The notes under the pieces are model-generated. The model was not told the origin of the DNA. It saw only the letters and a program-made list of their open reading frames with translations, and ran no database searches. DNA of 20,424 nt from a virus. The stretch is from UHGV virus genome UHGV-0172319; one strand, written 5' to 3'. Each line of letters starts with the position of its first letter. The first letter of the stretch is position 1. The translations under genes were made by a program, and so were the position numbers. This document shows positions 2,254 through 20,374 of the stretch, piece by piece.

Positions 2254-3249
2254 ATGTTTGAGCAGCGGAAAGCTTTGTATGCGCAACTGGAACAAGCACG
2301 CAGTTCAAAAGTATTATGCTATGTAACTGGTGACAGACCAAACCAAGAAGCTCAAATCAGCGCTGATGTATTTGATCTTTTCGTTAACCATTTAGATGTG
2401 ATCGGTGACGTTCAAAAAATTAGTCTTGTGCTCTATACGCGAGGCGGCGACACTTTGACTGCATGGAGCCTTGTAAACCTGCTTCGTCAGTTTTGTAAAG
2501 AACTCGAAATCATAATCCCATCCAAATGTCATAGCTCTGGGACGATCATGTGTCTTGGCGCTAACAATTTGGTTATGACAAAGCAGGCAACCTTAGGTCC
2601 AATCGATCCGAGTGTGAATACACCACTCAACCCTTCGGCCATTATCAATGGGCAGCAACTTCAACTTCCAGTCAGTGTTGAAGAAATCAATGGTTATCTT
2701 GAAGTAGTTAAGCATGATTTGAGTATCAAGGATGATGCCTCACTTGCGCAGATCCTCCTTGCATTAAGTGAAAAGGTTCACCCACTAGTGCTTGGTAAAG
2801 TCTATCGAGCTAAATCGCAGATTCAAATGCTCGCAAGAAAACTACTTTCTCACCAACTCACTGATAGTGAAAGCATTGAGAAAATTGTAAGTTTCCTTTG
2901 TAGTGATTCTGGTAGCCATGACTACACTATAAACAGGATTGAGGCAGTAAACGATTTAGGTCTTACTGTGGAAAAACCAGATGAGCAACTTTACGGCCTG
3001 ATCAAAGAAATTTATGAAGATTTCAAAACTGAGATGCATCTGGGTGAACCTTTTGACCCAAATGCTATCTTAGGAACAGTTAACCAAGCATCGTATGTAT
3101 CTGTTAGAAGCATTTTAGAGGCTCCAGATACATTTTCATATCAATTCCGCACTGAGGGCATGTTACAGCGTTTGCAAACTCCAGGTGTCCCAAGTCAGTT
3201 CGGAATAAATCATAACCTTATCTCAGAAGGATGGGCTCAACATGGATAA
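2254..3249 (+). CDS. SDH-family / ClpP-crotonase-fold serine protease-like protein (moron gene)
   Basis: 331 aa; N-terminal half has the ClpP/SppA-like pattern (LYTRGGDTLTAWSLVNLL..PSKCHSSGTIMCLGANNLVM..LGPIDP); good RBS (AAGGA, 8 nt spacing); clearly lower GC than flanking phage genes; opposite strand to the late operon. Confidence 0.65.
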   Translation: MFEQRKALYAQLEQARSSKVLCYVTGDRPNQEAQISADVFDLFVNHLDVIGDVQKISLVLYTRGGDTLTAWSLVNLLRQFCKELEIIIPSKCHSSGTIMCLGANNLVMTKQATLGPIDPSVNTPLNPSAIINGQQLQLPVSVEEINGYLEVVKHDLSIKDDASLAQILLALSEKVHPLVLGKVYRAKSQIQMLARKLLSHQLTDSESIEKIVSFLCSDSGSHDYTINRIEAVNDLGLTVEKPDEQLYGLIKEIYEDFKTEMHLGEPFDPNAILGTVNQASYVSVRSILEAPDTFSYQFRTEGMLQRLQTPGVPSQFGINHNLISEGWAQHG

Positions 3250-6119: not shown

Positions 6120-6439
6120 ACCGTGATCCCCTTGTTTTTGAGATAGGCGATTGCGCGGTCCTTCGCACCATCCTCACCATTCACAAGCGCATGCAGCAGG
6201 GAATCTGCATCAGCAACGTTCTCCAGATCGTTGATGGCTATTCCCCGCGAAACGCCACGCGTCAGGGTGATAGCCCCTTTCCTCTCCAGCGCGCGCAGAT
6301 GATCCGCAGCAGCATTTGGGGAGCTGCATCCCAGCAGCCCCGAAAGTTCTGTATTGGTTGGAGGATAGCCATGCTCGCGTTGAAAGCTGATCAAGGTCTC
6401 CAGTACATGCTGCTGGCGAGCCGTGAGAATTTCTTTCAC
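6116..6439 (-). CDS. LexA N-terminal DNA-binding-domain-like protein (winged HTH, no S24 peptidase domain)
   Basis: 107 aa; LTARQQHVLETL...PPTNTELSGLLGCSSPNAAADHLRALERKGAITLTRGVSRGI parallels the LexA DNA-binding domain; no Ser/Lys peptidase region follows. Confidence 0.6.
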   Translation of the reverse strand: MKEILTARQQHVLETLISFQREHGYPPTNTELSGLLGCSSPNAAADHLRALERKGAITLTRGVSRGIAINDLENVADADSLLHALVNGEDGAKDRAIAYLKNKGITV

Positions 6440-7314
6440 GCGCTTTCCTCCAGAATGTTGACCATCTGAGCAGAAGCAACGGCAATGATCTCGCTGGTGG
6501 GCATACGTTCAAGCCATAGCTGATTGATATTGTCTTTCAGCTTGTTCTGCTGTGACTCAGTCAGGGCGTCAACGCCATCCACCTGGTTAAACACCAGACC
6601 AACCTCGAGAGGCCAGATACGCGATTCGACTTCTGGTAATGTCAGCGGCGCAGGTGGCTGTACTGTTTCTGCCTGGCGGGTCTTACCAGCGGCAAATGTG
6701 ACCAGCGACATAAACGCCTTCCCTTTTTCCTCCAGATCGGTACGGCTGATGTAGCTGAAACGCTCGCCGCGCCATGACTTATCGAAGATTGCAATGGCGC
6801 CAGCAAAGAAAGCACCTGTGGGTTTCTGCTTATCGTCAGCAGGAACAAACCACACAGGGAGATCGAAACCAATGCGACCGCGAATAAACATGATGTGATC
6901 GGCATCTTCAGGCCACCATGTTTCACTTGTCGCCGCTTTAATGAGGAACACGTAACGCCCCCCCTTTTCACGCATCTCCATTGTGTGATCCATGATGTGG
7001 GTCATGCCGGTGATCGCCTGCTTCTCGTGGTACTGAGAGCGGCTATAGGGTGGATTACCGAATGCGGCCCCGCCGATTGATTCCAGCATTTCCGACCAAT
7101 CCTGCATCAACGCGTTATCTTCGGCGGTGTACCAGACCGGGCACTTCGCGTTATCGTCGTCAGCAAACAGATCCAGAACCAACGGCCCAAATATTGAGTT
7201 GATCCCCCAAAACAACAGATCCGGAGTACACCATTGATCACCAACCTCTTTCAGTTCATGGGCTGGTTTGCTTCGCAGTGAGGCCAGCGCCAGGCTGTAG
7301 GAACTAATATTCAT
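6436..7314 (-). CDS. Phage Dam-family N6-adenine DNA methyltransferase with C-terminal extension
   Basis: 292 aa; motif IV NPPY (AAFGNPPYS) in the N-terminal half; about 100 aa C-terminal extension of unknown function; 4-bp overlap with the upstream replication gene. Confidence 0.7.
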   Translation of the reverse strand: MNISSYSLALASLRSKPAHELKEVGDQWCTPDLLFWGINSIFGPLVLDLFADDDNAKCPVWYTAEDNALMQDWSEMLESIGGAAFGNPPYSRSQYHEKQAITGMTHIMDHTMEMREKGGRYVFLIKAATSETWWPEDADHIMFIRGRIGFDLPVWFVPADDKQKPTGAFFAGAIAIFDKSWRGERFSYISRTDLEEKGKAFMSLVTFAAGKTRQAETVQPPAPLTLPEVESRIWPLEVGLVFNQVDGVDALTESQQNKLKDNINQLWLERMPTSEIIAVASAQMVNILEESA

Positions 7315-9443: not shown

Positions 9444-9538
9444 GTTCCCTCCTAGTTAACCTACGCCCTAAAGGTAACAAAAGGTACATTAAATAGCAAA
9501 CAACAGTTACAGGAAAACAATGTAACATTCGTTACATG
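9444..9538. promoter_or_regulatory. OR-like immunity operator/promoter region between divergent cro and cI
   Basis: Contains operator copy GGTAACAAAAGGTACATT (9473-9490) and a related inverted element TGTAACATTCGTTACATG (9521-9538) overlapping the cI start; several GTAAC/GTTAC hexamers. Confidence 0.65.
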
Positions 9539-10198
9539 AAAACAGAGATGAAAGACCGAATCAGATCAAGGCGTGTACAGCTCGATATAACGCAGCAGAC
9601 CCTAGCTAAAAAGCTGGGGGTTAGCCGTGTATCTGTAACAAAATGGGAAAGCGGAACCACAAAACCAGATGGAGAGAACCTTCATCAGTTAGCGCTGGCT
9701 CTGCAAACCACCCCAGAATGGATTCTTTATGGTCAGGGCGATGATGAAAAAGTTGATGACACAAAATTAGTGCCATACTTAAAAACACCAACCGCCGTCC
9801 CAATTATTTCTGCTGTTCAGGCAGGCCTGTGGACTGATACCTATGCATGCTCAAGGCTGACTGATGTGATTTCCTGGACTCAAACAACTGCTAATGTTTC
9901 TGACGAAGTTTTTGGTCTTGTCGTTCGCGGCGAATCGATGACAAACCCACATGGACTCCCTTCAATACCTGAAGGCTCTATCGTAATCGTTGAACCACAC
10001 TATGGTCAGCTAGATGACCTTTATGGGAAGATCGTAGTTGCAGTTCTGGATGGCTCTGCTGAAGCTACGGTGAAAAAGTTAGTATGGGATAGCCCTTATG
10101 CCTATCTCATGCCACTAAATCCAGTGTTTAAACCCATTCAGATTGATGGAAATTGCAGAATCGTTGGAAAGGTTGTTCAGATTACGCAAAACCTATAG
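9536..10198 (+). CDS. cI: CI-type prophage repressor (N-terminal HTH plus C-terminal S24 LexA-like autopeptidase domain)
   Basis: 220 aa; HTH (LDITQQTLAKKLGVSRVSVTKWESG); C-terminal VVRGESM (Ser nucleophile) and TVKKL (Lys) as in lambda CI/LexA; divergent from cro. Confidence 0.9.
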   Translation: MKTEMKDRIRSRRVQLDITQQTLAKKLGVSRVSVTKWESGTTKPDGENLHQLALALQTTPEWILYGQGDDEKVDDTKLVPYLKTPTAVPIISAVQAGLWTDTYACSRLTDVISWTQTTANVSDEVFGLVVRGESMTNPHGLPSIPEGSIVIVEPHYGQLDDLYGKIVVAVLDGSAEATVKKLVWDSPYAYLMPLNPVFKPIQIDGNCRIVGKVVQITQNL

Positions 10199-10218: not shown

Positions 10219-10245
10219 GCCAGCGAGATCGCTGGCTTTTTTTTT
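10219..10245 (+). terminator. Rho-independent terminator downstream of cI
   Basis: GCCAGCGA..TCGCTGGC stem followed by a run of nine T. Confidence 0.6.
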
Positions 10246-10249
10246 ACCC

Positions 10250-10310
10250 AAAAGGTAACAAAAAGTACATTACACACTTGACCATCATGGTAACTAAAGG
10301 TACATTCTTA
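10250..10310 (+). promoter_or_regulatory. OL-like operators with pL-like promoter (-35 TTGACC 10278-10283, -10 TACATT 10301-10306, 17-bp spacer)
   Basis: Two further copies of the 18-bp operator: GGTAACAAAAAGTACATT (10254-10271) and GGTAACTAAAGGTACATT (10289-10306); the latter overlaps the -10 element. Confidence 0.65.
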
Positions 10311-10583
10311 TTACACCGTAGGAACCATTGGTTACCACGGAAAGTTCCTTGTTCTGGCTGTTCACTTTCCCCTTGAGGGTGTCAGCCAGCCTTTTCAGGG
10401 CACAACATGCAAGCGCACTCCTTCACTTACCAGTTATGGGTGACAGGTGTGAAACGGCGGAGTGCGCTTGCAGTTGTGGTGAAGTGCAGCCCTCAGAGGT
10501 AACCAGAAGATAAGCATCTGGCGCCACAACCCAATCACGTAGCCAGCGTGGTACCAGGAAGTAAGAAAGCTGTGTGTAGTCTT

Positions 10584-10655
10584 GGCGGTACCAGGGTCTT
10601 CAACCTGAAAAAAGGGGGACGAAGATAATGTTCTACCTCGGTACCGCCCTTTTTT
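10584..10655 (+). terminator. Terminator/attenuator-like structure in the early-left leader
   Basis: 9-bp perfect inverted repeat GGCGGTACC (10584-10592) / GGTACCGCC (10640-10648) followed by TTTTTT; an upstream AAAAAAGGG tract (10608-10616) can alternatively pair with CCCTTTTTT (10647-10655). Confidence 0.4.
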
Positions 10656-10791
10656 ACAAAACAGACAAGGGCATCACCGGGCGACGGGCTCATAACCCAA
10701 TCCACCCGGGCGGTTGCAGCCGCAGGTGCTCTTGTCTGTTTTGTGGAGAAACTAACTGGCGGTTGCGACCGCCAACTCGAGGGTTAAGACG

Positions 10792-11163
10792 ATGAGTAAT
10801 GACCGCATGACCGTAGTGCCCGATTTCCTGGGCGAACTGGATGCCGGCGTGTTCATGAACAAGATCGCCGCTGCGCTGAATACCACCGCGCTCGGCGTTC
10901 TGAACAACGGCAACAAAGGCAAGGTAGTCCTCACCTTTGATTTTGAGCGTATGGGTAACTCCGTCGAAGAAAAGCGCGTCAAGATCAAGCACAAGCTGAA
11001 CTACAGCACCCCGACACCGCGCGGTAAAGCGTCTGAAGAGGACACAACCGAAACCCCTATGTGGGTCAACAAAGGCGGGAAGCTCACCATCCTCCAGGAG
11101 GATCAGGGGCAACTGTTCGGGATCACCGGTACGGTGGACGGAAAGCTTAAAGCGGCTCAGTGA
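10792..11163 (+). CDS. Hypothetical early-left protein (resembles CPS-53 YfdP-type gene by position and size)
   Basis: 123 aa; RBS GAGGG; first gene after the pL leader; family assignment from memory only. Confidence 0.5.
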   Translation: MSNDRMTVVPDFLGELDAGVFMNKIAAALNTTALGVLNNGNKGKVVLTFDFERMGNSVEEKRVKIKHKLNYSTPTPRGKASEEDTTETPMWVNKGGKLTILQEDQGQLFGITGTVDGKLKAAQ

Positions 11164-11219
11164 TCCGCAGCAACAAATTCACTGATACCACTTCGATCAT
11201 CAGTTAATAAGGAATTTCT

Positions 11220-12047
11220 ATGTCTCAGTTAGACAGCGGTGCATTTAAGCAGGTAAAAGACCTGGTCCTTTCTGGCTACCACCTGAATGATATTCAGGAT
11301 CTGGCATGCCCTACCGCTTTGTTGCCAGAAGGAACCAGCGTTGAAAGCCTCGAGCGTTTTTCTCTGGAGCGTTTCCGCTTTCGCGGCGCAATGACCACGA
11401 CCAGCATTGACGACTTCGCTCGTTACTCGAAGGGTTACGCCAGCGCCGACGAACCCGCCCGTTGCTTTATTGACGCTGACAACATGACCGCCCGCTCGGT
11501 ATTCAATATCGGTTCCCTGAAAAATCCTGGACATGCCGATAACGTTGCCGCTATCACCCTGAAGAAAACTGCCCCGTTCCGCGCTCTGCTGCAGATCGAT
11601 GGTCAACGCCTGAAGCAAAAGCAAATCGCTGAATGGCTGGAAGACTGGAGCGATTATCTGCTGGCGTTCGATGCTGATGGCAATACGATGCAAATTTCCC
11701 AGGCCGCCCAGGCTGTACGCCGTATCACTATCCAGCAGGCAACCCAGCAGGATCATGAAACGGGTGACTTCGCAGGTAAACGTTCACTCATGCAAAGCGT
11801 CGAAGCCAGCAGCAAAGATGTCATGCCGGTGGCGTTCGAGTTCAAGTGTGTGCCGTATGAAGGGCTTGGCGAGCGCCGCTTTAGTCTGCGTAACAGCCTG
11901 CTGACTGGTGATGAGCCAAGCTTTGTTCTGCGTATCGTCCAACTGGAAGCCCAGGAAGAAGCGATCGCCAACGAGTTTCGCGATCTGCTGATCAGTAAAT
12001 TCGACGGTGAATCAGTAGAAACTTTCATCGGTAACTTTAAAGCATAA
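11220..12047 (+). CDS. DUF2303-family protein (YfdQ-like)
   Basis: 275 aa; RBS AAGGAA; size and position match the CPS-53 yfdQ-yfdR arrangement; immediately precedes the HD-domain gene. Confidence 0.65.
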   Translation: MSQLDSGAFKQVKDLVLSGYHLNDIQDLACPTALLPEGTSVESLERFSLERFRFRGAMTTTSIDDFARYSKGYASADEPARCFIDADNMTARSVFNIGSLKNPGHADNVAAITLKKTAPFRALLQIDGQRLKQKQIAEWLEDWSDYLLAFDADGNTMQISQAAQAVRRITIQQATQQDHETGDFAGKRSLMQSVEASSKDVMPVAFEFKCVPYEGLGERRFSLRNSLLTGDEPSFVLRIVQLEAQEEAIANEFRDLLISKFDGESVETFIGNFKA

Positions 12048-12058
12048 TTGCTCAGCAT

Positions 12059-12086
12059 TAAATCCCCGGCGTCGCGGGGATTTATT
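12059..12086 (+). terminator. Stem-loop, weak terminator or attenuator, between yfdQ-like and yfdR-like genes
   Basis: AAATCCCCG..CGGGGATTT hairpin followed by ATTG; may allow read-through. Confidence 0.4.
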
Positions 12087-12178
12087 GAAGCGTAATTCCT
12101 TTATATATCGCCATCTGGCGAGGGATTCGTGCAACCAAAAATCGTGCGGTGCAGCGCACCAATTAAGGAGAACTAACG

Positions 12179-12718
12179 ATGAGTTTTATCCAGACTCTTT
12201 CCGGTAAGAAGTTCGATTATATCAACTCCACCATTGACGATATTGATATCGAAGACATCGCCGGGGCGCTTTCCAATATCTGCCGCTTCGCGGGGCACCT
12301 GTCGGAATTTTACAGCGTGGCGCAGCACTCCGTTCTGTGCAGTCAGCTCGTGGCGCCAGAGTTCGCCTTTGAAGCGCTGATGCATGATGCCGCAGAGGCA
12401 TACTGCCTGGACATCCCTGCCCCGCTGAAAGCTTTGTTGCCAGATTACCGCCGGATCGAGACGCGCACGGATCAACTGATCCGCCTGAAATTCGGCCTGC
12501 CTCTCGACGAGACATACCTCGTTAAATATGCCGACCTGACTATGCTAGCGACCGAGCGCCGGGATCTGGATATCGACGACGGCTCCATATGGCCGATTCT
12601 GGAAGGTATTCCACCAACGGATTTATTCGAAATTCATCCTTTGCGCCCCGGTCAGGCTTTCGGCCTGTTCATTAACCGGTTCAATGAACTGATGGAGCTG
12701 CGCCAATGCGCCGCCTGA
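12179..12718 (+). CDS. HD-domain phosphohydrolase (YfdR-like 5'-deoxynucleotidase family)
   Basis: 179 aa; HD motif (ALMHDAAEAY) and upstream His (SVAQHS); RBS AAGGAG; size and motifs consistent with CPS-53 YfdR. Confidence 0.8.
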   Translation: MSFIQTLSGKKFDYINSTIDDIDIEDIAGALSNICRFAGHLSEFYSVAQHSVLCSQLVAPEFAFEALMHDAAEAYCLDIPAPLKALLPDYRRIETRTDQLIRLKFGLPLDETYLVKYADLTMLATERRDLDIDDGSIWPILEGIPPTDLFEIHPLRPGQAFGLFINRFNELMELRQCAA

Positions 12719-12882
12719 AAGTAAAGGAGCTTGTTGCGGAGGCGCATGCCTCCGTACCGGAACTACCAGCAAAGCATGGGCGGCTTATGAAAGAGGTCGC
12801 AACACGACTGGAAGCAACCTATGCAGCGTTAACCGAGTCACTGGCTCGGCTGGATCAACAACGTGAAGGTAATGCGCAATGA
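12706..12882 (+). CDS. Small hypothetical protein (58 aa), translationally coupled on both sides
   Basis: ATG at 12706 overlaps the yfdR-like stop; its TGA overlaps the ATG of the next gene (ATGA). Translation MRRLKVKELVAEAHASVPELPAKHGRLMKEVATRLEATYAALTESLARLDQQREGNAQ. Absent from the ORF track. Confidence 0.3.
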   Translation: MRRLKVKELVAEAHASVPELPAKHGRLMKEVATRLEATYAALTESLARLDQQREGNAQ

Positions 12883-13133
12883 CCGTATTCGAATACGTCC
12901 AGGCCTATCCCAATACCACCAGCAGCGATATTGCTAAAGCGCTGCACAGAAGGACACCTGTCGTGGCCGGCGCACTATCGCAACTCTACACCACTGGCCA
13001 CATCGTAAAAACTGGCGTTCGTGGTGGCGCACCAACTTACCGCGTTAACGATCTGCCATTCGGCTGCAGTAATCCTCTGACGCTAATGTTCAACCAGCTT
13101 TTACAGGCAGTTCGCCGGGAGGCAGCCCAATGA
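12879..13133 (+). CDS. Hypothetical small protein (84 aa, possible winged-helix)
   Basis: ORF with coupled start; overlaps the downstream PAPS-reductase-family gene by 4 nt. Confidence 0.5.
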   Translation: MTVFEYVQAYPNTTSSDIAKALHRRTPVVAGALSQLYTTGHIVKTGVRGGAPTYRVNDLPFGCSNPLTLMFNQLLQAVRREAAQ

Positions 13134-14155
13134 GCAACATTGACCAGCGCTGCCTTGCAAAAAACACCTTCAATTTAATTTCCATGTCCGGTGGGAAGGA
13201 CTCTCTCGCACAATGTCTGTACGCAGTAGAGAACGGCGTGCAGCACGAGCGGGTGTTTGCTGACACTGGTCACGAACACCCACAAACGATGGAGTACCTC
13301 GATTACCTGGAACAAAAGCTGGGTCCGATTCGCTGTGTAAAAGCCGACTTTACTCGTCAGATCGAGGGTAAGCGTAAATTCATTGCAGAAAAATGGCCGG
13401 TCTCCCTCGTTGAAGAATGTGGGATGTCTCAAGATGAAGCGGCGGAGCGCATTGCAAAAGCCTTAGAAATCCTCCACCCAACCGGTAATCCATTTCTTGA
13501 CCTGTGCATGTGGAAAGGCCGATTTCCGAGCACAAAGGCGCGGTTCTGCACGTTCGACCTTAAACATGAGCCTGTACGCACTCAGGTGGTGCTGCCGGCA
13601 CTTGATGAATATGACGAGGTTATCAGCTGGCAGGGTGTACGCGCCCAGGAATCGCCAGCGCGGGCCGGCCTGCCAATGTGGGAAGAAGATGCAGACAATA
13701 CGCCTGGCCTGCACGTCTATCGTCCGATCCTCAACTGGCTGCATGAGGATGTATTCGCCATTGCTAAACGCCACGGTATTAAACCTAACCCACTCTACCA
13801 GCAGGGATGCAGCCGGGTTGGGTGTATGCCGTGTATTCATGCTCGTAAATCTGAACTGGCAGAAATTTTCCAGCGCTGGCCGGAGGAAATCGCCAGGGTG
13901 GCGGAGTGGGAGCGATTCGTTGCGGCCTGCTCCCGCCGTGGAAATTCTACCTTCTTCCCGTCGACTCATGACCCACGAAGGGCGGAACGTCGCATAGACG
14001 TTATCACTGTTGACGGTTACGGGATTGAAACCTATCGAGACTGGGCAATGACCACTCGCGGGGGGCGCAATTTGATTTACTGGCCGCTGCGAACGATAAA
14101 TCCGTGTGCAGCAGTATTTATGCGGGGGTGTGCGAATGAACGAAAAACTACTTGA
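13130..14155 (+). CDS. PAPS-reductase-family PP-loop ATP pyrophosphatase-like protein
   Basis: 341 aa; PP-loop motif SMSGGKDS near the N-terminus; Cys-rich C-terminal region (GCSRVGCMPC); RBS GGAGG. Confidence 0.8.
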   Translation: MSNIDQRCLAKNTFNLISMSGGKDSLAQCLYAVENGVQHERVFADTGHEHPQTMEYLDYLEQKLGPIRCVKADFTRQIEGKRKFIAEKWPVSLVEECGMSQDEAAERIAKALEILHPTGNPFLDLCMWKGRFPSTKARFCTFDLKHEPVRTQVVLPALDEYDEVISWQGVRAQESPARAGLPMWEEDADNTPGLHVYRPILNWLHEDVFAIAKRHGIKPNPLYQQGCSRVGCMPCIHARKSELAEIFQRWPEEIARVAEWERFVAACSRRGNSTFFPSTHDPRRAERRIDVITVDGYGIETYRDWAMTTRGGRNLIYWPLRTINPCAAVFMRGCANERKTT

Positions 14156-14294
14156 TGACGACGTAAAAATCCTCCGCCGTCAAATCGATGAAGGTCGACC
14201 ATATGCCGAAGTGATTAATTTCATGGTTAATCAACTGGGATTAACCCACCAGGAAGCGCAGGACGTTTACGAGCGTCTGGCATGTGAGGACTAA
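14136..14294 (+). CDS. Small hypothetical protein (52 aa)
   Basis: ATG at 14136 preceded by a GGGGG RBS; overlaps the end of the PAPS-reductase-family gene; the track ORF starts earlier at 14106. Confidence 0.35.
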   Translation: MNEKLLDDDVKILRRQIDEGRPYAEVINFMVNQLGLTHQEAQDVYERLACED

Positions 14295-14422
14295 CGGGTT
14301 CATTTACAGCAATGGATACCGCTTATCAGAAGATGCTCGCTGCATCACCATTGCATTCAGCCACCAGCACTGATAATTGATGTTACAGCCCGGGTGCAGC
14401 CGGGCTAAGTGGAGAAACAGCC

Positions 14423-14632
14423 ATGGCAAAGCTAATGAAGGCGAGTCAATGGGGACGCCGTGAATTTACCAATGACTCAGTTCCTGACAACCGAACTATT
14501 AGACGTTGGGTCGAGAATGGTTTACTCATGGGACGTATCGTGGACGGTTCTGTTTTTGTCTGCGAAACAGAAAAATGGGGTGTCGACTCAATGGTTAGTC
14601 AAGTAGTTCGCCAGTTAATTAATGAGGGCTGA
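14423..14632 (+). CDS. xis: Excisionase (Xis)
   Basis: 69 aa; TIRRWVENGLLMGRIVDGSVFV resembles the lambda Xis winged-helix core; immediately upstream of int with 1-codon spacing; RBS GGAG. Confidence 0.65.
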   Translation: MAKLMKASQWGRREFTNDSVPDNRTIRRWVENGLLMGRIVDGSVFVCETEKWGVDSMVSQVVRQLINEG

Positions 14633-14634
14633 CC

Positions 14635-15813
14635 ATGGCGGCAAGGCCAAGAAAAAAAGAATACCGACATCTGCCGGACTATCTGGTATTTGATAAAGAT
14701 CGAGGTGTTTATAAATTCACACTTATTACCGGGAAGAAGAAAAATATAGGTAAGGATCGGGCCATAGCAATAGCTATCGCTAGAGAGTACAACCTGAGAA
14801 TGAGACCTGAGCTTTCCCCGTCGGTTGATAATCTCATTAGAGAATCTGGTGGGGCTACTGGAGAAGCCAAACCATTTGCTGAACATGTGGATCACATAAT
14901 GGAACGTGCTATTGAGGACGAGCGCCCTTCTCAGAGCACCCTGGATGACTGGAATAATGACGCACTACGCGTAAAAGAGTTTTTCGTTAATGTTCCTGCC
15001 TGCGATATCGAGTTGGAGCATGTTAACGCATACATCAATCAATACCATGCCGGCGCGTCTGCGAACGTGCAAAACAGAAAAGTCAGCTTCCTTAAAAAGC
15101 TGTTTTCGTATGCGGTCGATGAATCCCTGATGCTCGATAATCCGGCAACCCGGAAGAAAATGCGCAGGACCGAAGAGAAGAAAAGACAACGCCTGTCTCT
15201 CGATCATTTCATGGCTATCCGGCGCGCTGCAGCACCATGGTTAAGAACGGCAATGGACCTGGCTCTACAGACGACACATGCGCGCCTCGAAGTATCGAGG
15301 ATCCGTTATTCAATTCGCGAACCCAAAAACGGTATATGTGGTTGTGTCTGGCTCGATCAGCCAGAGAACGGTATCTATGGAACACTATACATACACCGCC
15401 AAAAGGTACAGAAGAAGGAGGCGTCGCACGTTGCGATCCCCATAGGTGATGAGTTAAAACGCATCATTGATGATAGCCGGGATAATGTGGCCAGCCCGTA
15501 TGTTGTTCACCGGATCCCAGAACGGCAGGTAAAACGGAGTAAAGAGGTTTCGCATCCCACCCAGGTGGCCCCGGACTATTTAAGCCGCTCATTCTCTGCA
15601 GTACGCGACAAGCTCGGGTTATGCAATCACCTCGCTATGGATGAAAGACCTACCTTCCATGAAATACGCGCGTTGGCTGCTCACTTGTTTAATCAACAGG
15701 GTATCGATCCACAAGGACGAATGGCGCACAGTGATGCCAAGTCAACGAAGATTTATACCCAAAACCATATTGATTGGGTCGTTGTTCCTCATGGAGAAAT
15801 TTTAACGGCATAA
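14635..15813 (+). CDS. int: Tyrosine integrase (lambda Int family)
   Basis: 392 aa; C-terminal catalytic-region motifs (HEIRALAAHL; IYTQNH with putative Tyr nucleophile); N-terminal arm-binding-like domain; position after xis. Confidence 0.9.
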   Translation: MAARPRKKEYRHLPDYLVFDKDRGVYKFTLITGKKKNIGKDRAIAIAIAREYNLRMRPELSPSVDNLIRESGGATGEAKPFAEHVDHIMERAIEDERPSQSTLDDWNNDALRVKEFFVNVPACDIELEHVNAYINQYHAGASANVQNRKVSFLKKLFSYAVDESLMLDNPATRKKMRRTEEKKRQRLSLDHFMAIRRAAAPWLRTAMDLALQTTHARLEVSRIRYSIREPKNGICGCVWLDQPENGIYGTLYIHRQKVQKKEASHVAIPIGDELKRIIDDSRDNVASPYVVHRIPERQVKRSKEVSHPTQVAPDYLSRSFSAVRDKLGLCNHLAMDERPTFHEIRALAAHLFNQQGIDPQGRMAHSDAKSTKIYTQNHIDWVVVPHGEILTA

Positions 15814-16123: not shown

Positions 16124-16159
16124 CCCCTTGCATTGGTTGGCGCCAAGCAAGGGGTTTTT
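16124..16159. terminator. Bidirectional terminator between convergent int and ImmA-like gene
   Basis: CCCCTTGC..GCAAGGGG stem (16124-16154) followed by TTTTT; a second hairpin AAGGCACC..GGTGCCTT sits just after the int stop (15817-15837). Confidence 0.5.
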
Positions 16160-16679
16160 ACATTTTGTCTAACTGATAACGTGCGGCCACTAATGATACT
16201 CCGCATGCCTCAGCAACATTTTCAGCACCCATCCCTTTTAAAACATTGGCATGAATAGCTGGCACTAATAACTCACCACTAAAACATTTAGCTTGCCACT
16301 CACTACTCTCAAAAGGGCGGATTTTAACCCCTGGAGCAGAACGAGCAAAAGCTATGTTCCTGTGCATGAGAAGATGGCCCAACTCATGCGCGGCAGTCAT
16401 CCTGTCACGACCAACCCCATTCAAAGCACCTTCGTAGATGTCTTCGCGCAGAATTAATAAATGTTCCTGCGGGTACGTAAGTCCATGCGTCTCCCCCATT
16501 TCTTTCATCCCGCCGATGTGGAGTTCAAAATCAGGGATCAACTGAGGCAATGCGAACTCAATTACCTCCATAACAGGAAACTTCAGACCTGTAATACCGA
16601 AGGTGCTCCGCAGAGATCTGACGATCGAACGTATTGATTCACGATTCTGCGGGGGTACTCGATAATCTTGTCCGCTCAA
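16158..16679 (-). CDS. ImmA/IrrE-family zinc metallopeptidase (COG2856-like)
   Basis: 173 aa; HEXXH motif (AAHELGHLLMH); apparent TTG start preceded by a strong AGGAGG RBS; directly downstream of the XRE HTH gene. Confidence 0.8.
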   Translation of the reverse strand: MSGQDYRVPPQNRESIRSIVRSLRSTFGITGLKFPVMEVIEFALPQLIPDFELHIGGMKEMGETHGLTYPQEHLLILREDIYEGALNGVGRDRMTAAHELGHLLMHRNIAFARSAPGVKIRPFESSEWQAKCFSGELLVPAIHANVLKGMGAENVAEACGVSLVAARYQLDKM

Positions 16680-16687
16680 ACTGCCTC

Positions 16688-17047
16688 CTACTGCTGTTTT
16701 CGATTCAAAATCTGTCGTAAATTCCGGAAGTCTTCTTCGTTTAACTCATCAAAACTACGAGCGAACGCAATTGCGACTTCACGAGCGTGGTCGTTCTTAC
16801 CTGACAAGCTGATCTCTACTGATTGCTGAGAGTCACGAGCTGCACTGATAAGCTTTTCTTTTTGTTTTTCATCCGCATTAAGATAGCCAATGATGCTATC
16901 AAGCACGGGTTTAGTGACCGCCCTTTTACCAGTTTCGATTGCTGAAAGATAAGACGAGGTCATACCCATAGCCTCAGCCATGCTTTTAAGCGTAAGCCCC
17001 AGGTCTATGCGCATTTTTCTTACTGTCTTACCAAACGGCGTTAACAT
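16688..17047 (-). CDS. XRE-family helix-turn-helix transcriptional regulator
   Basis: HTH segment (LGLTLKSMAEAMGMTSSYLSAIETGKR); ATG at 17047 with GGAG RBS (the track ORF's TTG at 17080 is less likely); forms an operon with the ImmA-like gene. Confidence 0.8.
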   Translation of the reverse strand: MLTPFGKTVRKMRIDLGLTLKSMAEAMGMTSSYLSAIETGKRAVTKPVLDSIIGYLNADEKQKEKLISAARDSQQSVEISLSGKNDHAREVAIAFARSFDELNEEDFRNLRQILNRKQQ

Positions 17048-17121
17048 ATGTTGTATCTCCAGTGTGTCAAAGACCCCCAATACTCTCGGGTCTCATTTTA
17101 AGTTAACACGCTCCAGACATG

Positions 17122-17145
17122 AAATCAACTAAATTTTGTTGATTT
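17122..17145. promoter_or_regulatory. Perfect palindrome AAATCAAC-N8-GTTGATTT upstream of the XRE/ImmA operon; candidate operator
   Basis: 8-bp perfect inverted arms read in sequence, about 75-100 bp upstream of the XRE start in an AT-rich promoter region. Confidence 0.45.
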
Positions 17146-17343
17146 GTTTTATCTGACTTAGTTAATGAGTTTTTCATGTTCTGTTGATAGAACCTTTAGC
17201 TGAGTGAAGATATATGGGGAAATATGGGATATAAGTCTTTGATGTACAACACACACATTTTGCGAAAAATGCACTGTTTGTTTATACATACGAATGGTTA
17301 GCAACAGCAGACATGGAGCGACTTGCAGAGCTTTCGAAGCGGT

Positions 17344-17391
17344 GTCATGGGGTGTCGGGGGTCGGAGGTTCAAATCCTCTCGTGCCGACCA
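17344..17391 (+). other. 3' fragment (about 48 nt: anticodon-loop region, T-arm, acceptor 3' strand, CCA) of a tRNA-Pro(GGG)-like gene, with no matching 5' half; candidate att core
   Basis: GTCATGGGGTGTCGGGGGTCGGAGGTTCAAATCCTCTCGTGCCGACCA has the T-loop GGTTCAAATCC and acceptor CGTGCCGACCA; matches enterobacterial proL as recalled from memory; no complementary CGGCACG acceptor 5' strand upstream. Confidence 0.6.
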
Positions 17392-17401
17392 AAATTCCCC
17401 A

Positions 17402-17433
17402 GAAAAACCAGCCTTTTACGGCTGGTTTTTTTA
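17402..17433 (+). terminator. Rho-independent terminator directly after the tRNA fragment
   Basis: CCAGCC..GGCTGG stem followed by TTTTTTT. Confidence 0.6.
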
Positions 17434-17523
17434 TTATTGCCGTCCACCGAAATGGAATTCGATTCGAGTTATGGACGGAAATAATGTTACACTTCCGGTT
17501 TTGCACAGCCGATCTTATTGCTT

Positions 17524-17886
17524 ATGTGGCATCACTTCATCAAGTACACCTCCGTAGGCGTGATCAACACATTGATTCACTGGATAGTTTTTGCTATCTG
17601 CATCTACGCCTTTCATACCCATCAGGCGCTGGCGAATTTCCTGGGCTTCAGTGTGGCGGTCAGTTTTTCTTTTTACGCCAACGCCCGGTTTACCTTTAAG
17701 CAATCGACCACAACGCGTCGCTATCTGCTGTATGTCGGCTTTATGGGCCTGCTCAGTATCCTGACGGGTTGGGGGGCCGAACAGTGCGGTTTCCCACCGC
17801 TGGTGACGCTGGTCGCGTTCTCCGCCATTAGTCTCATTTGTGGCTTTATTTATTCCAGATTCATTGTATTCAAGGACGCACGATGA
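17524..17886 (+). CDS. gtrA: GtrA, bactoprenol-linked glucose flippase (O-antigen glucosylation)
   Basis: 120 aa from ATG 17524; small polytopic membrane protein ([14 protein letters not shown]..., ...[18 protein letters not shown]) closely resembling P22/SfV GtrA as recalled. Confidence 0.85.
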
Positions 17887-18830
17887 AAATTTCACTGGTC
17901 GTTCCTGTCTTCAACGAAGAAGAAACCATTGGCCTCTTTTACAAGACGGTGCGTGAATACGACGCACTGAAAGAACATGATGTCGAAATTGTGTTCATCA
18001 ACGATGGTAGCACCGACGCAACGGAATCCATCATCAACGCCCTCGCCGTCGCCGACCCACTCGTTGTTCCGCTCTCGTTTACGCGAAATTTTGGTAAAGA
18101 ACCGGCGCTGCTCGCCGGGCTCGACAATGCCAGTGGCGATGCCGTCATTCCGATGGATGTCGATCTCCAGGATCCTGTCGAAGTCCTGCCGCACTTGATT
18201 CAAAAATGGCAGGATGGGGCGGACATCGTGCTGGCTAAGCGTTCCGATCGCTCCGTCGATAGCCGCCTGAAGCGAAAATCCGCCGAGTGGTTTTATAAGC
18301 TACACAATAAAATCAGCACGCCGCATATCGAAGAAAACGTCGGCGATTTTCGGCTGATGAGTCGTGAAGTGGTGGACAACATTAAACAAATGCCAGAACG
18401 AAATCTGTTCATGAAAGGGATTTTATCCTGGGTTGGCGGCAAAACTGACATCGTCCTCTACGCGCGCGCCACTCGCTGTGCCGGGAAAAGTAAATTCAAC
18501 GGCTGGAAACTGTGGAACCTTGCACTGGAAGGGATCACCTCTTTTTCTACCTTCCCTCTGCGTATCTGGACCTACATTGGTCTGGCGGTTGCCCTGCTTT
18601 CTTTCACCTACGGTGCAGGAATGGTGATAGATACGCTTCTGTGGGGAAATCCCGTGCGTGGCTATTCTTCCTTGATTGTGTCAATCCTGTTTCTGGGAGG
18701 CGTACAGCTTATTGGCATTGGCGTGCTGGGTGAGTATATCGGACGAATCTATGTCGAGACCAAGCAGCGGCCTCGATACATTCTGAAAAAACGTAAAACT
18801 GTGGACCACGATTCAGACAAGGATAACTGA
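17883..18830 (+). CDS. gtrB: GtrB, bactoprenol glucosyltransferase (GT2 family)
   Basis: 315 aa; [13 protein letters not shown]... with DxD-type region (PMDVDLQD); C-terminal TM helices; start overlaps gtrA stop (ATGA). Confidence 0.9.
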
Positions 18831-20374
18831 TGTTAAAGCATGTTAATAAAAGCATTCTTTTAATTGCCTTTTTTGCAGTATTTATCCTGGAGTGGTTCAC
18901 CCCTATTCACTCCGATGATTACCGTTATGCCCTGCTTGGCATCTCATTTGATGCGCACCTGCATCACTACCTGACCTGGAGCGGGCGCATAGTGGCTGAT
19001 TTTGTCAGCTCGCTTTTACTCGCCACCGGATCTCGTGGATTTATCTCAACCATGACCGGCCTTGTCGTCGTCGCGTTCTGCTATTTCATTGTGAAAACGC
19101 CGACGGGCACGCTGAAATGGAAAAAACATGACGCGCTGATCTTTACCCTTATTTTTCTGACCTTTTGGGTCGCTAACCCGAATATCGGACAAACGGTTTT
19201 CTGGATAGTCGGCAGCGCGAACTACCTGTGGACGAATCTGTTCGTCGCCGCATGGCTCTGGAACCTGTACCGCATACAGCTTCAGCGTGAAGAGCGTACA
19301 CACATGGGTATGCTGTTGCTCGGGCTGTTGGCGGGCTGTTCCAATGAAAGCGTCGCGCCATTTGTCGTGGGTTTTGCCCTTCTGGCTATCGTGTACGATT
19401 ACTGGCAAGCGAAACGCGTCTTTGCGAATAAGGTCGCGTATTTTTTGTCCGCACTGGTGGGCGCCAGTATTTTGATTTTCTCACCAGGCAATTTTATTCG
19501 CGCTCAGGGCGCTCATACCGTCTGGTATGATAAATCGATCGTTGAAAGAATCACAATTCATCTGAGCGAGCGCTTCTTTAACCACCTGGCGCTGGTCTGG
19601 ATTTCTTATGTCGTACTGGTCTTACTGGCAATGCTTCTGATCGTGGCCAAACGACAAGGCCATCGCATTAAAAGTGCGAATCTCAACATGGTCGGCTTAA
19701 TGCTGTTGGTGGGGCTGGGAACCTCTTTAATTATGGTGGCCTCCCCGTCGTATCCTGACCGCGTCATGCTGTCGACATTTTTATTTTTCCTGCTTGCCCT
19801 CTCGTTCCTTGCGCGGGAAGTCGTCACGGTAGCCGGACCATGTGTCATGAAAGGAGTCTATGTCGTTACGGGCCTGATGGCTGCGGTATTCATCTGGTCA
19901 TACGCGTTAATGTATGCCGCTTATACGCGCGTTTATGAGCAGGATGTTGTTCGTGTGAATATCGTTAAGCGCCAACTCAGCCAGGGTCACAAGGACTTTA
20001 CGGTGCCTGACTTCCACTTCCTGAAAATGCAAAACAGCGGAGGGCATTTCGGTTTCTTTCACGATCCGCAGGTCTATGGCCGTTATTTTGCCGCAGGGAA
20101 TGTGGCGAAGAAAAAAGTTAACTTCGACTACTCCGTACTCGTCAACGGTAAGCAGCAAACCATCGATGACAATACCGTGGCCTGGTTCAATCACCGCGGT
20201 GATTTAATGCTGGTGAGCAAGCATCCATTAACCGGTACCGTGCAGGTGAAGACCGAATCGTCCGATACGTCGCGCTCGCTTACGCGCTTTACCGCCGCGA
20301 AAATTAACGATGAATACTGGTATTTCAGCGCCATACCTAAAGCAGAAGTGACTCACGTCGCGCTGCTGCCCTGA
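18830..20374 (+). CDS. gtrC: GtrC-type serotype-specific O-antigen glucosyltransferase (polytopic membrane protein)
   Basis: 514 aa; many hydrophobic segments over the first 380 aa then a soluble C-terminal domain; third gene of the gtr operon, start overlapping the gtrB stop. Confidence 0.7.
   Translation: MLKHVNKSILLIAFFAVFILEWFTPIHSDDYRYALLGISFDAHLHHYLTWSGRIVADFVSSLLLATGSRGFISTMTGLVVVAFCYFIVKTPTGTLKWKKHDALIFTLIFLTFWVANPNIGQTVFWIVGSANYLWTNLFVAAWLWNLYRIQLQREERTHMGMLLLGLLAGCSNESVAPFVVGFALLAIVYDYWQAKRVFANKVAYFLSALVGASILIFSPGNFIRAQGAHTVWYDKSIVERITIHLSERFFNHLALVWISYVVLVLLAMLLIVAKRQGHRIKSANLNMVGLMLLVGLGTSLIMVASPSYPDRVMLSTFLFFLLALSFLAREVVTVAGPCVMKGVYVVTGLMAAVFIWSYALMYAAYTRVYEQDVVRVNIVKRQLSQGHKDFTVPDFHFLKMQNSGGHFGFFHDPQVYGRYFAAGNVAKKKVNFDYSVLVNGKQQTIDDNTVAWFNHRGDLMLVSKHPLTGTVQVKTESSDTSRSLTRFTAAKINDEYWYFSAIPKAEVTHVALLP

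Follow-up and report, generated by a model that had tools for sequence, protein, structure and literature searches.

Between positions 10792 and 14294 of the viral genome UHGV-0172319 (the window, by which we mean the whole stretch of 20,424 nucleotides (nt) analysed here), seven + strand genes occupy the early-left position of a lambdoid phage, beginning with homologues of the Escherichia coli K-12 genes yfdP, yfdQ and yfdR. Here we show that yfdP and yfdQ form an obligate gene pair across proteobacterial phages, which yfdR joins in enterobacterial lambdoid phages, and that the region is very probably mosaic, composed of three or more cassettes that were inherited independently: yfdP–yfdQ(–yfdR), the genes for proteins of 58 and 84 amino acids (aa), and a gene of the phosphoadenosine phosphosulfate (PAPS) reductase family, PAPS_reduct, with a 52-aa open reading frame (ORF). 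The original prediction, made from the letters of the DNA, had proposed one combined module for host takeover, anti-defence or DNA modification. Every part of the region falls within a family that already has a name and whose function is known in part at most. The order of the genes, a site resembling a promoter, the overlaps at the junctions, the conservation of the leader structure and the statistics of co-occurrence are observed directly; on this basis we lean slightly towards an overall explanation in which an early-left accessory mosaic holds a takeover core and a separate function of the type of coliphage 186 Orf84. Three leads merit pursuit: what the YfdP–YfdQ pair does, whether the Orf84-type enzyme serves counter-defence, and the leader RNA. 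The genes of the region and its flanks are as follows.

9536–10198, + strand: CI-type repressor, with Pfam HTH_3 and Peptidase_S24 domains
10792–11163, + strand: yfdP homologue, 123 aa, 59% identity to K-12 YfdP, the obligate upstream partner of yfdQ
11220–12047, + strand: yfdQ homologue, 275 aa, DUF2303 (PF10065), 58% identity to K-12 YfdQ
12179–12718, + strand: yfdR homologue, 179 aa, HD-domain phosphohydrolase, 69% identity to K-12 YfdR (phrog_318; PDB 2gz4)
12706–12882, + strand: 58-aa ORF, phrog_12248 (E = 5.7e-25)
12879–13133, + strand: 84-aa ORF, probably winged-helix (MarR-like), C-terminal part of phrog_1687
13130–14155, + strand: PP-loop protein of the PAPS_reduct family, 341 aa (PF01507), orthologue of coliphage 186 Orf84
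14136–14294, + strand: 52-aa ORF without family matches, 62 aa if started at an upstream GTG instead of the ATG
13137–14350: mosaic cassette of the PAPS-family gene and the 52-aa ORF, bounded by a homology break in the nearest relatives
14423–14632, + strand: excisionase-like gene, from domain and PHROG searches
14635–15813, + strand: tyrosine integrase, from domain and PHROG searches, the end of the early-left operon

All seven ORFs lie on the strand and at the coordinates first listed for them, flanked by the CI-type repressor and by xis/int (14423–15813), and the predicted lambda-like position without recombination genes was confirmed. The seven are far above chance expectation, each being kept in tens to hundreds of other phage loci, with the 52-aa ORF the weakest. 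Their description as a tight chain of overlapping genes holds for the last four junctions, from yfdR onward (−13, −4, −4 and −20 nt), whereas yfdP and yfdQ are separated by 56 nt and yfdQ and yfdR by 131 nt, with an own Shine–Dalgarno sequence at each.

The case for a mosaic is carried by three sets of IMG/VR loci scored by profile searches: the 80 loci closest to the window's YfdQ, 80 loci of the K-12 type and 57 diverse loci with 39–58% identity to their query, 217 in total.

80 closest loci: YfdP with YfdQ in 79, YfdR with YfdQ in 79, PAPS-family gene in 1
80 K-12-type loci: YfdP with YfdQ in 80, YfdR with YfdQ in 78, PAPS-family gene in 0
57 diverse loci: YfdP with YfdQ in 56, YfdR with YfdQ in 14 (directly adjacent in 1), PAPS-family gene in 2

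YfdP, whose place is immediately upstream of YfdQ, was present in 215 of the 217 YfdQ loci, and in five of five further distant contigs the two genes were adjacent with YfdR absent; IMG/VR scans with two distant YfdQ representatives returned no matches. The PAPS-family gene stood beside YfdQ in 3 of the 217 loci and, reciprocally, YfdP/Q were found in 4 of the 80 loci closest to the PAPS-family gene. Because this gene is so rarely found with YfdP/Q, the pairing of an HD-domain protein with a PP-loop enzyme, which had been taken as a hint of nucleotide or DNA modification chemistry, is a mosaic accident. The idea of a combined module fails on the same counts, its members not co-occurring as far as the PAPS-family gene is concerned. 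Showing that a suggestive pairing arose by mosaic chance mainly tidies the annotation.

The joints of the mosaic can be placed by comparison with the nearest relatives, three loci (L003, L004 and L006) that share 96–97% DNA identity with the window from the leader to the end of the 84-aa gene. Homology to them ends at 13136–13144 and resumes at 14350–14361, with unrelated DNA in between, so that the PAPS-family gene and the 52-aa ORF constitute a 1.2-kb cassette. Amino-acid identity in most close loci steps from about 95–99% for P and Q to about 70–79% for yfdR and the small ORFs, which suggests a mosaic joint, with recurrent recombination, in the 131-nt yfdQ–yfdR spacer (12048–12178). A Chi site (14361–14368, − strand) lies at the right-hand joint of the PAPS-family cassette and could be a coincidence or the trace of a RecBCD-mediated mosaic exchange.

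The naming of the first three genes as YfdP/Q/R-like was right, as the identities to the K-12 proteins listed above attest, and the 123-aa protein, correctly called a gene and at first described as unknown, is YfdP. The DUF2303 assignment of YfdQ was borne out by the Pfam profile (PF10065, E = 1.5e-66; 224.8 bits with a cut-off of 26.6), to which residues 31–273 align over positions 28–269 of 269, that is, full-length. All 120 listed YfdP homologues, some of them 99% identical, carry a precomputed assignment to a new Pfam family, PF27127; YfdP is 93–100% identical across close loci, and the nearest YfdQ proteins are those of Citrobacter freundii (97% identity). The YfdQ family is sizeable (1398 clusters at 50% identity) and phage-restricted in its gene context, and one homologue is deposited as PDB 9o7m with 36 chains. 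A structure search with the AlphaFold2 model of YfdQ (pLDDT 91.4) found no fold analogue. For YfdP, we found no recognisable known fold and, by sequence or profile search, no YfdP-like chain in the PDB. PADLOC models gave no matches to YfdP, YfdQ, YfdR or the small ORFs.

In the mechanism that we propose, YfdQ would assemble into a very large homo-oligomer and work in partnership with YfdP. It is possible, although we would not presume it, that P–Q represents a widespread two-gene early phage function built on a giant YfdQ homo-oligomer, of a mechanism class not yet described, and placed in enterobacterial lambdoid phages under the new leader RNA at 10651–10773. If true, the pair might, for example, provide a new control of replication initiation or a means of neutralising host defence. 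As the pair is obligate, yfdP and yfdQ are worth studying jointly; work on K-12 left yfdP out. Two neighbours recur among the 57 diverse loci (L252–L308). In 9 of them, yfdP comes directly after a gene for a single-stranded DNA-binding protein (SSB), and in 24, from GC-rich phages, yfdQ is directly followed by a gene for a protein of about 179 aa; inspected by eye, this protein shows coiled-coil-like repeats and, at its N terminus, a hydrophobic stretch resembling a transmembrane segment. Each of the two neighbours may be a partner of the P–Q pair that is specific to certain lineages.

The reading of YfdR as an HD-domain phosphohydrolase stands on its intact H…HD…D motif (H50, H69-D70 and D119, with the same residues aligned in the HD protein Atu1052 and in K-12 YfdR), on phrog_318 ('dNMP phosphatase', deoxyribonucleoside 5′ monophosphate phosphatase; E = 3.5e-96), on Atu1052 itself (PDB 2gz4; E = 3e-13) and on K-12 YfdR, but the Pfam HD model misses the protein: no Pfam or NCBIfam family was matched at E ≤ 0.01, and the profile matches come from PHROG only. 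The HD metal-binding motif and the PHROG annotation are shared with the HD-domain 5′-deoxynucleotidases of the E. coli YfbR and phage T5 Dmp type. Unlike these, the window's YfdR has no Pfam or NCBIfam HD match, and K-12 YfdR is reported to have weak dNMP phosphatase activity and a nucleotide affinity far below that of YfbR (PMC4776307).

What is known of these genes in K-12 comes from the prophage CPS-53 (KpLE1), where yfdP–yfdQ–yfdR–yfdS–yfdT presents the same three genes in the same order as the window, likewise between the immunity region and an excisionase gene, with int and gtrABC-like genes in both. The difference lies in what follows the trio: yfdS and yfdT in CPS-53, and in the window the 58-aa ORF, the 84-aa winged-helix ORF, the Orf84-like enzyme and the 52-aa ORF. 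Noguchi & Katayama (2016; PMC4776307) reported that purified YfdR binds domain I of DnaA in a Phe46-dependent manner and that multicopy yfdQ, yfdR and either yfdS or yfdT inhibit initiation at oriC, yfdP being dispensable, which agrees with what the original prediction had stated of yfdQRST. By extension from these homologues, the window's YfdR would bind DnaA domain I and, with YfdQ, damp initiation at the host oriC, and the P–Q–R core would effect a takeover of host replication or of the nucleotide pool early in lytic growth. For the enterobacterial P–Q–R block we put such a takeover forward as the most likely role, tentatively and with rather less than even confidence.

Several points weigh against it. 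The K-12 replication phenotype was seen under multicopy expression alone, deletion of yfdQRST left no phenotype in replication, and the authors concede that the inhibition of initiation may be an artefact of overexpression (PMC4776307). Of the minimal set of yfdQ, yfdR and yfdS or yfdT, the window holds Q and R and leaves the S/T part unfilled: a similarity search revealed no YfdT homologue within the window, no yfdS/DUF551 gene was seen in it, the unrelated 58- and 84-aa genes standing at that position, and a YfdS homologue occurs in 1 of the 80 loci closest to the window's YfdQ. Since S or T is required and absent here, the DnaA-linked phenotype of K-12 is not simply transferable. YfdP, the most faithful partner of YfdQ, is unneeded for that phenotype, and P–Q is widespread without YfdR, so the core function of the pair may be unrelated to DnaA. 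Finally, we infer promoter use and co-transcription of the whole cluster from position.

An alternative that we regard as unlikely is that yfdP–yfdQ serves anti-defence or superinfection exclusion, for example as a large-oligomer sponge or decoy, the DnaA effect being a side-effect of overexpression, as the concession of the K-12 authors would permit. It would suit a pair whose genes are the first to follow the early promoter, within a mosaic region that is hypervariable, and a large family, phage-restricted in context, with an assembly as great as the 36 chains of 9o7m; moreover, production of YfdQ in K-12 set off plaque production from a resident phage (bioRxiv 10.1101/413146). Against this, no PADLOC model was matched (the library covers proteins of defence, not of anti-defence), experiments are not known to have linked the pair to any defence system, and such strict pairing and strong conservation (P at 93–100% in close loci) are atypical of fast-evolving anti-defence genes.

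A further alternative, that yfdP–yfdQ(–yfdR) is an unrecognised recombination or DNA-end module replacing Red/Erf in phages devoid of their own recombination (Rec) genes, draws on the character of the phage as a whole. The trio holds the exo–bet–gam position, and no single-strand annealing protein, exonuclease or RecBCD inhibitor (Gam/Abc) was found among the ORFs from pL to int, all of which are assigned, or in the rest of the window, which is less than the whole phage; the recombination-type genes of the nin region are RusA and DUF968/HNH only. Chi (GCTGGTGG) occurs 11 times, with 0.67 ± 0.75 expected and none of 100 shuffles reaching 11, at positions 1094, 1100, 1914, 4188, 4317, 4588, 5810, 6493, 8637, 12916 and 14361, eight of them on the − strand, and no site lies after 14368, in the gtr/int-distal part. 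Lacking a Rec module and having 11 Chi sites, the phage fits the published 'LLS functional type', a class of Rec-less, Chi-rich lambdoid phages for which the yfdP/yfdQ/HD trio was named in LLS, ST64B and phiNP (Genome Research 2025; PMC12315714). The cluster was to that extent not the unknown territory it had been thought, and the PAPS-family gene, too, has a precedent in 186 orf84.

The corresponding genes of LLS (gp37–39), ST64B (sb35–37) and phiNP have 78–82% DNA identity to the window over yfdP–yfdQ–yfdR, and LLS-type phages resemble the window in their many Chi sites and absence of a Rec module; they differ in carrying other genes after the trio, the PAPS cassette being unmatched at the DNA level among the listed phage records. 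Further encouragement for a recombination role can be drawn from the SSB gene that precedes yfdP in 9 of the 57 diverse loci, from a weak sensitivity of a K-12 yfdQ mutant to methyl methanesulfonate (as cited in PMC4776307) and from JC1, whose DUF2303 protein was found in CsCl-purified virions and was speculated by the JC1 authors to bind DNA ends. A 36-mer assembly of the YfdQ type could, however, simply co-sediment with virions in the JC1 case, and the study that defined the LLS type gave P and Q no known function and held them unlikely to be recombination proteins, as phage ArgO145 carries the trio in addition to a full Rec module (PMC12315714). We judge a recombination role to be improbable and retain takeover as the provisional role of the P–Q–R block. 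The phage itself is a lambdoid prophage of Citrobacter that converts serotype and is of the Rec-less, Chi-rich 'LLS type'; among E. coli genomes, the best DNA-level match to the window is about 81%.

Turning to the third cassette, membership of the 341-aa protein in the PAPS_reduct family was substantiated by a single-domain match to PF01507 (E = 1.5e-37). The protein carries the canonical PP-loop SGGKDS at residues 20–25 and CSRVGCMPC at 227–235, with a C227/C232/C235 cluster. It is an orthologue of coliphage 186 Orf84 in an early phage operon, as judged from 79.3% identity over residues 4–334 (79–80% when P2-like homologues are included, over 97% of the length). The annotation of 186 orf84 gives it as of unknown function and not essential, and its full translation appears to be needed for translation of the A replicase. 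In coliphage 186, and in homologues such as that of Yersinia phage P37, the gene lies in an early operon with stop/start overlaps to its neighbours, as here; in 186, however, the gene with which it is coupled is A, encoding the rolling-circle replicase, whereas the window's gene belongs to a lambdoid pL operon and is followed by the 52-aa ORF and xis/int. In the 80 loci closest to it, the PAPS-family gene is directly upstream of a P2 gpA-type replicase gene in 62 and directly downstream of a Dam-type methylase gene in 33, and a methylase gene is often its immediate neighbour in Burkholderia phages, as in P2-like ones. What has been called a PAPS reductase is the long-known and function-less 186 orf84 and not a gene of sulfur metabolism; in our explanation it would provide a separate, dispensable early function.

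By its motifs and profile scores, the enzyme is of the ATP-pyrophosphatase type and not a sulfonucleotide reductase of the CysH type. Its best PADLOC matches are to SspD (1.7e-24), BrxP (2e-13) and DndC (1e-6), with which it shares a PAPS_reduct-fold core, the canonical PP-loop and the cysteine cluster, although these matches are partial (for SspD, the best stretch joins residues 125–264 to profile positions 70–202 of 277) and below the curated threshold (17.7 bits for the DndC model TIGR03183, with a cut-off of 290.4), and no dndA/B/D/E, sspA/B/C or BREX partner genes are present in the window. A function in counter-defence is raised by Vibrio phages, in which a PAPS-domain–Dam fusion gene and an adjacent gene together enabled infection of a Dnd+ host (bioRxiv 10.1101/2021.05.05.442762), a basis on which a 2026 Nucleic Acids Research paper counts the PAPS reductases of phages among the candidates for anti-defence genes (PMC13551039). 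The fusion protein, p0018 of Vibrio phage 44E38.1 (Piel et al.), has a PAPS_reduct-family domain related to DndC and lies in a variable region; likened by domain, it differs in being fused to Dam, whereas the window protein stands alone and the window's Dam (6436–7314) lies in the other early operon.

By this analogy, the Orf84-like enzyme may act on or with DNA phosphorothioation chemistry and so allow escape from Dnd/Ssp-type restriction, a suggestion that we offer with some reserve, inasmuch as the anti-Dnd precedent is a fusion protein from a different phage group whose effect was obtained with two genes moved together, and 186 orf84 is without a reported phenotype. 'Anti-defence or DNA modification', as first proposed, was in this sense a fair guess for the PP-loop enzyme alone and not for the combined module. 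For a stand-alone counter-measure against restriction based on phosphorothioates, the Orf84 family offers a tractable candidate.

That the 341-aa protein might instead be an auxiliary metabolic, CysH-like PAPS reductase boosting host sulfur assimilation is very improbable. Phage records do annotate such genes as 'cysH' or 'PAPS reductase', and beyond the PF01507 match, PDB PAPS reductases align to residues ~146–250 (E = 3e-8 to 3e-4), but the protein scores far under the curated CysH cut-offs (PRK02090, 63.9 versus 154; TIGR02057, 38.4 versus 254.2; TIGR02055, 48.8 versus 235.3), a regular-expression search found no C-terminal ECG[LI]H catalytic cysteine motif of CysH in it, with a canonical SGGKDS instead, SspD, BrxP and DndC match better, and the gene sits in early replication operons beside methylases and replicases. 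Least credible is one co-adapted system, in which HD phosphohydrolase, PP-loop enzyme and small proteins would form a single nucleotide or DNA modification pathway: co-orientation, the overlaps among the last five genes and the presence of a PAPS-family gene downstream of yfdR or yfdQ in further lambdoid loci (L089, L090, L091, L121 and L137) speak for it, but it is largely refuted by the co-occurrence data above, by the unrelated DNA that replaces the cassette in relatives otherwise 96–97% identical and by the residence of the PAPS-family gene mainly in P2-like phages, which are without yfdPQR.

The name 'PAPS reductase' recurs at another gene of the window. The best PHROG match of the Dam-type methylase (6436–7314, − strand, PF05869) is phrog_33262, labelled 'PAPS reductase', to the C-terminal part of the profile only, and many RefSeq phage records, including that of SfV 'dam', call plain Dam homologues 'PAPS reductase'. 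As a sign of fusions near the window's Dam the label was dropped, as PF01507 was found in none of the 120 closest Dam homologues; a possible explanation is annotation spill-over from real PAPS–Dam fusions such as p0018.

Upstream of yfdP, about 480 nt without a convincing ORF separate the gene from a pL-like promoter, and contain a structured leader.

10219–10236, + strand: terminator after cI, from a terminator scan
10278–10306, + strand: pL-like sigma-70 promoter, TTGACC and TACATT with a 17-nt spacer, by consensus match
10651–10773, + strand: structured leader RNA, by minimum free energy (MFE) fold and covariation

After loss of the repressor, all of the genes would be transcribed from the promoter at 10278–10306 by way of this structured leader of about 480 nt. 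The leader has a long stem (10651–10675 with 10725–10749) that includes a perfect 14-nt inverted repeat (10656–10669 and 10731–10744), an inner hairpin (10677–10688 with 10696–10709), a variable hairpin (10710–10723) and a GC hairpin (10758–10773) right before the yfdP ribosome-binding site; its MFE is −72.7 kcal/mol, with a z of about −6. When the window's MFE fold was projected onto an alignment of 54 distinct and mutually related sequences, the window among those tested, 89.5% of cells were paired (46–56% in slid controls), 12 pairs had double-sided changes (5.9 ± 1.3 in shuffles, with 0 of 500 reaching 12) and 42 cells were compensatory (7–18 in slid controls). RNAalifold applied directly to the MAFFT alignment gave short hairpins only and no long stem. 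No Rfam family reached its gathering score anywhere in the window. The leader may serve as a site for RNase III, control the translation of yfdP or bring about antitermination in the manner of put, and it offers a handle on early-left control in N-less lambdoid phages, there being no N-like gene after pL.

Two other observations concern the leader. A decayed copy of a gene for a ClpX-type zinc finger, which one E. coli relative has at this place, was looked for in the leader and is not there. Just before the leader stem, at a terminator-like GGTACCGCCCTTTTTT, ends a DicF-like match (10571–10649, + strand; 16.6 bits where the gathering score is 48, E = 0.63), which is probably due to chance; DicF is also found in an early-left-type prophage operon.

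The small ORFs differ in how widely they are held. The gene for the 58-aa protein is present in 54 of the 80 close loci and that for the 84-aa protein in 38; the latter matches its phrog_1687 profile with E = 3.3e-20 and is probably a winged-helix (MarR-like) domain protein. The 52-aa ORF, which found no match among Pfam, NCBIfam, PHROG or PADLOC profiles, has copies in two other loci alone (L086 and L091), 69–75% identical and at the same position, and accompanies the PAPS-family gene in its lambdoid version.

Elsewhere in the window, a lambdoid early-right operon on the − strand encodes Cro-like and CII-like proteins, an O-like/DnaD-like initiator, Dam, a protein with a LexA DNA-binding domain, RusA, KilA-N, DUF968/HNH, Q and a second methyltransferase. 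Beyond the integrase, 16158–20374 holds an IrrE/ImmA-like M78 peptidase with an XRE-type helix-turn-helix partner (− strand), and then a gtrA/gtrB/DUF6056 (gtrC-like) operon for O-antigen glucosylation, with counterparts in CPS-53 and SfV. No tRNA gene was found in the window and xis and int are 2 nt apart, so the attachment site should lie elsewhere. A ClpP-like, SDH-type serine protease gene (2254–3249, + strand; phrog_11747) lies in a low-GC island (0.39–0.42) as the lone + strand gene between the Q antiterminator and DNA methylase genes, and has a moron-like look.

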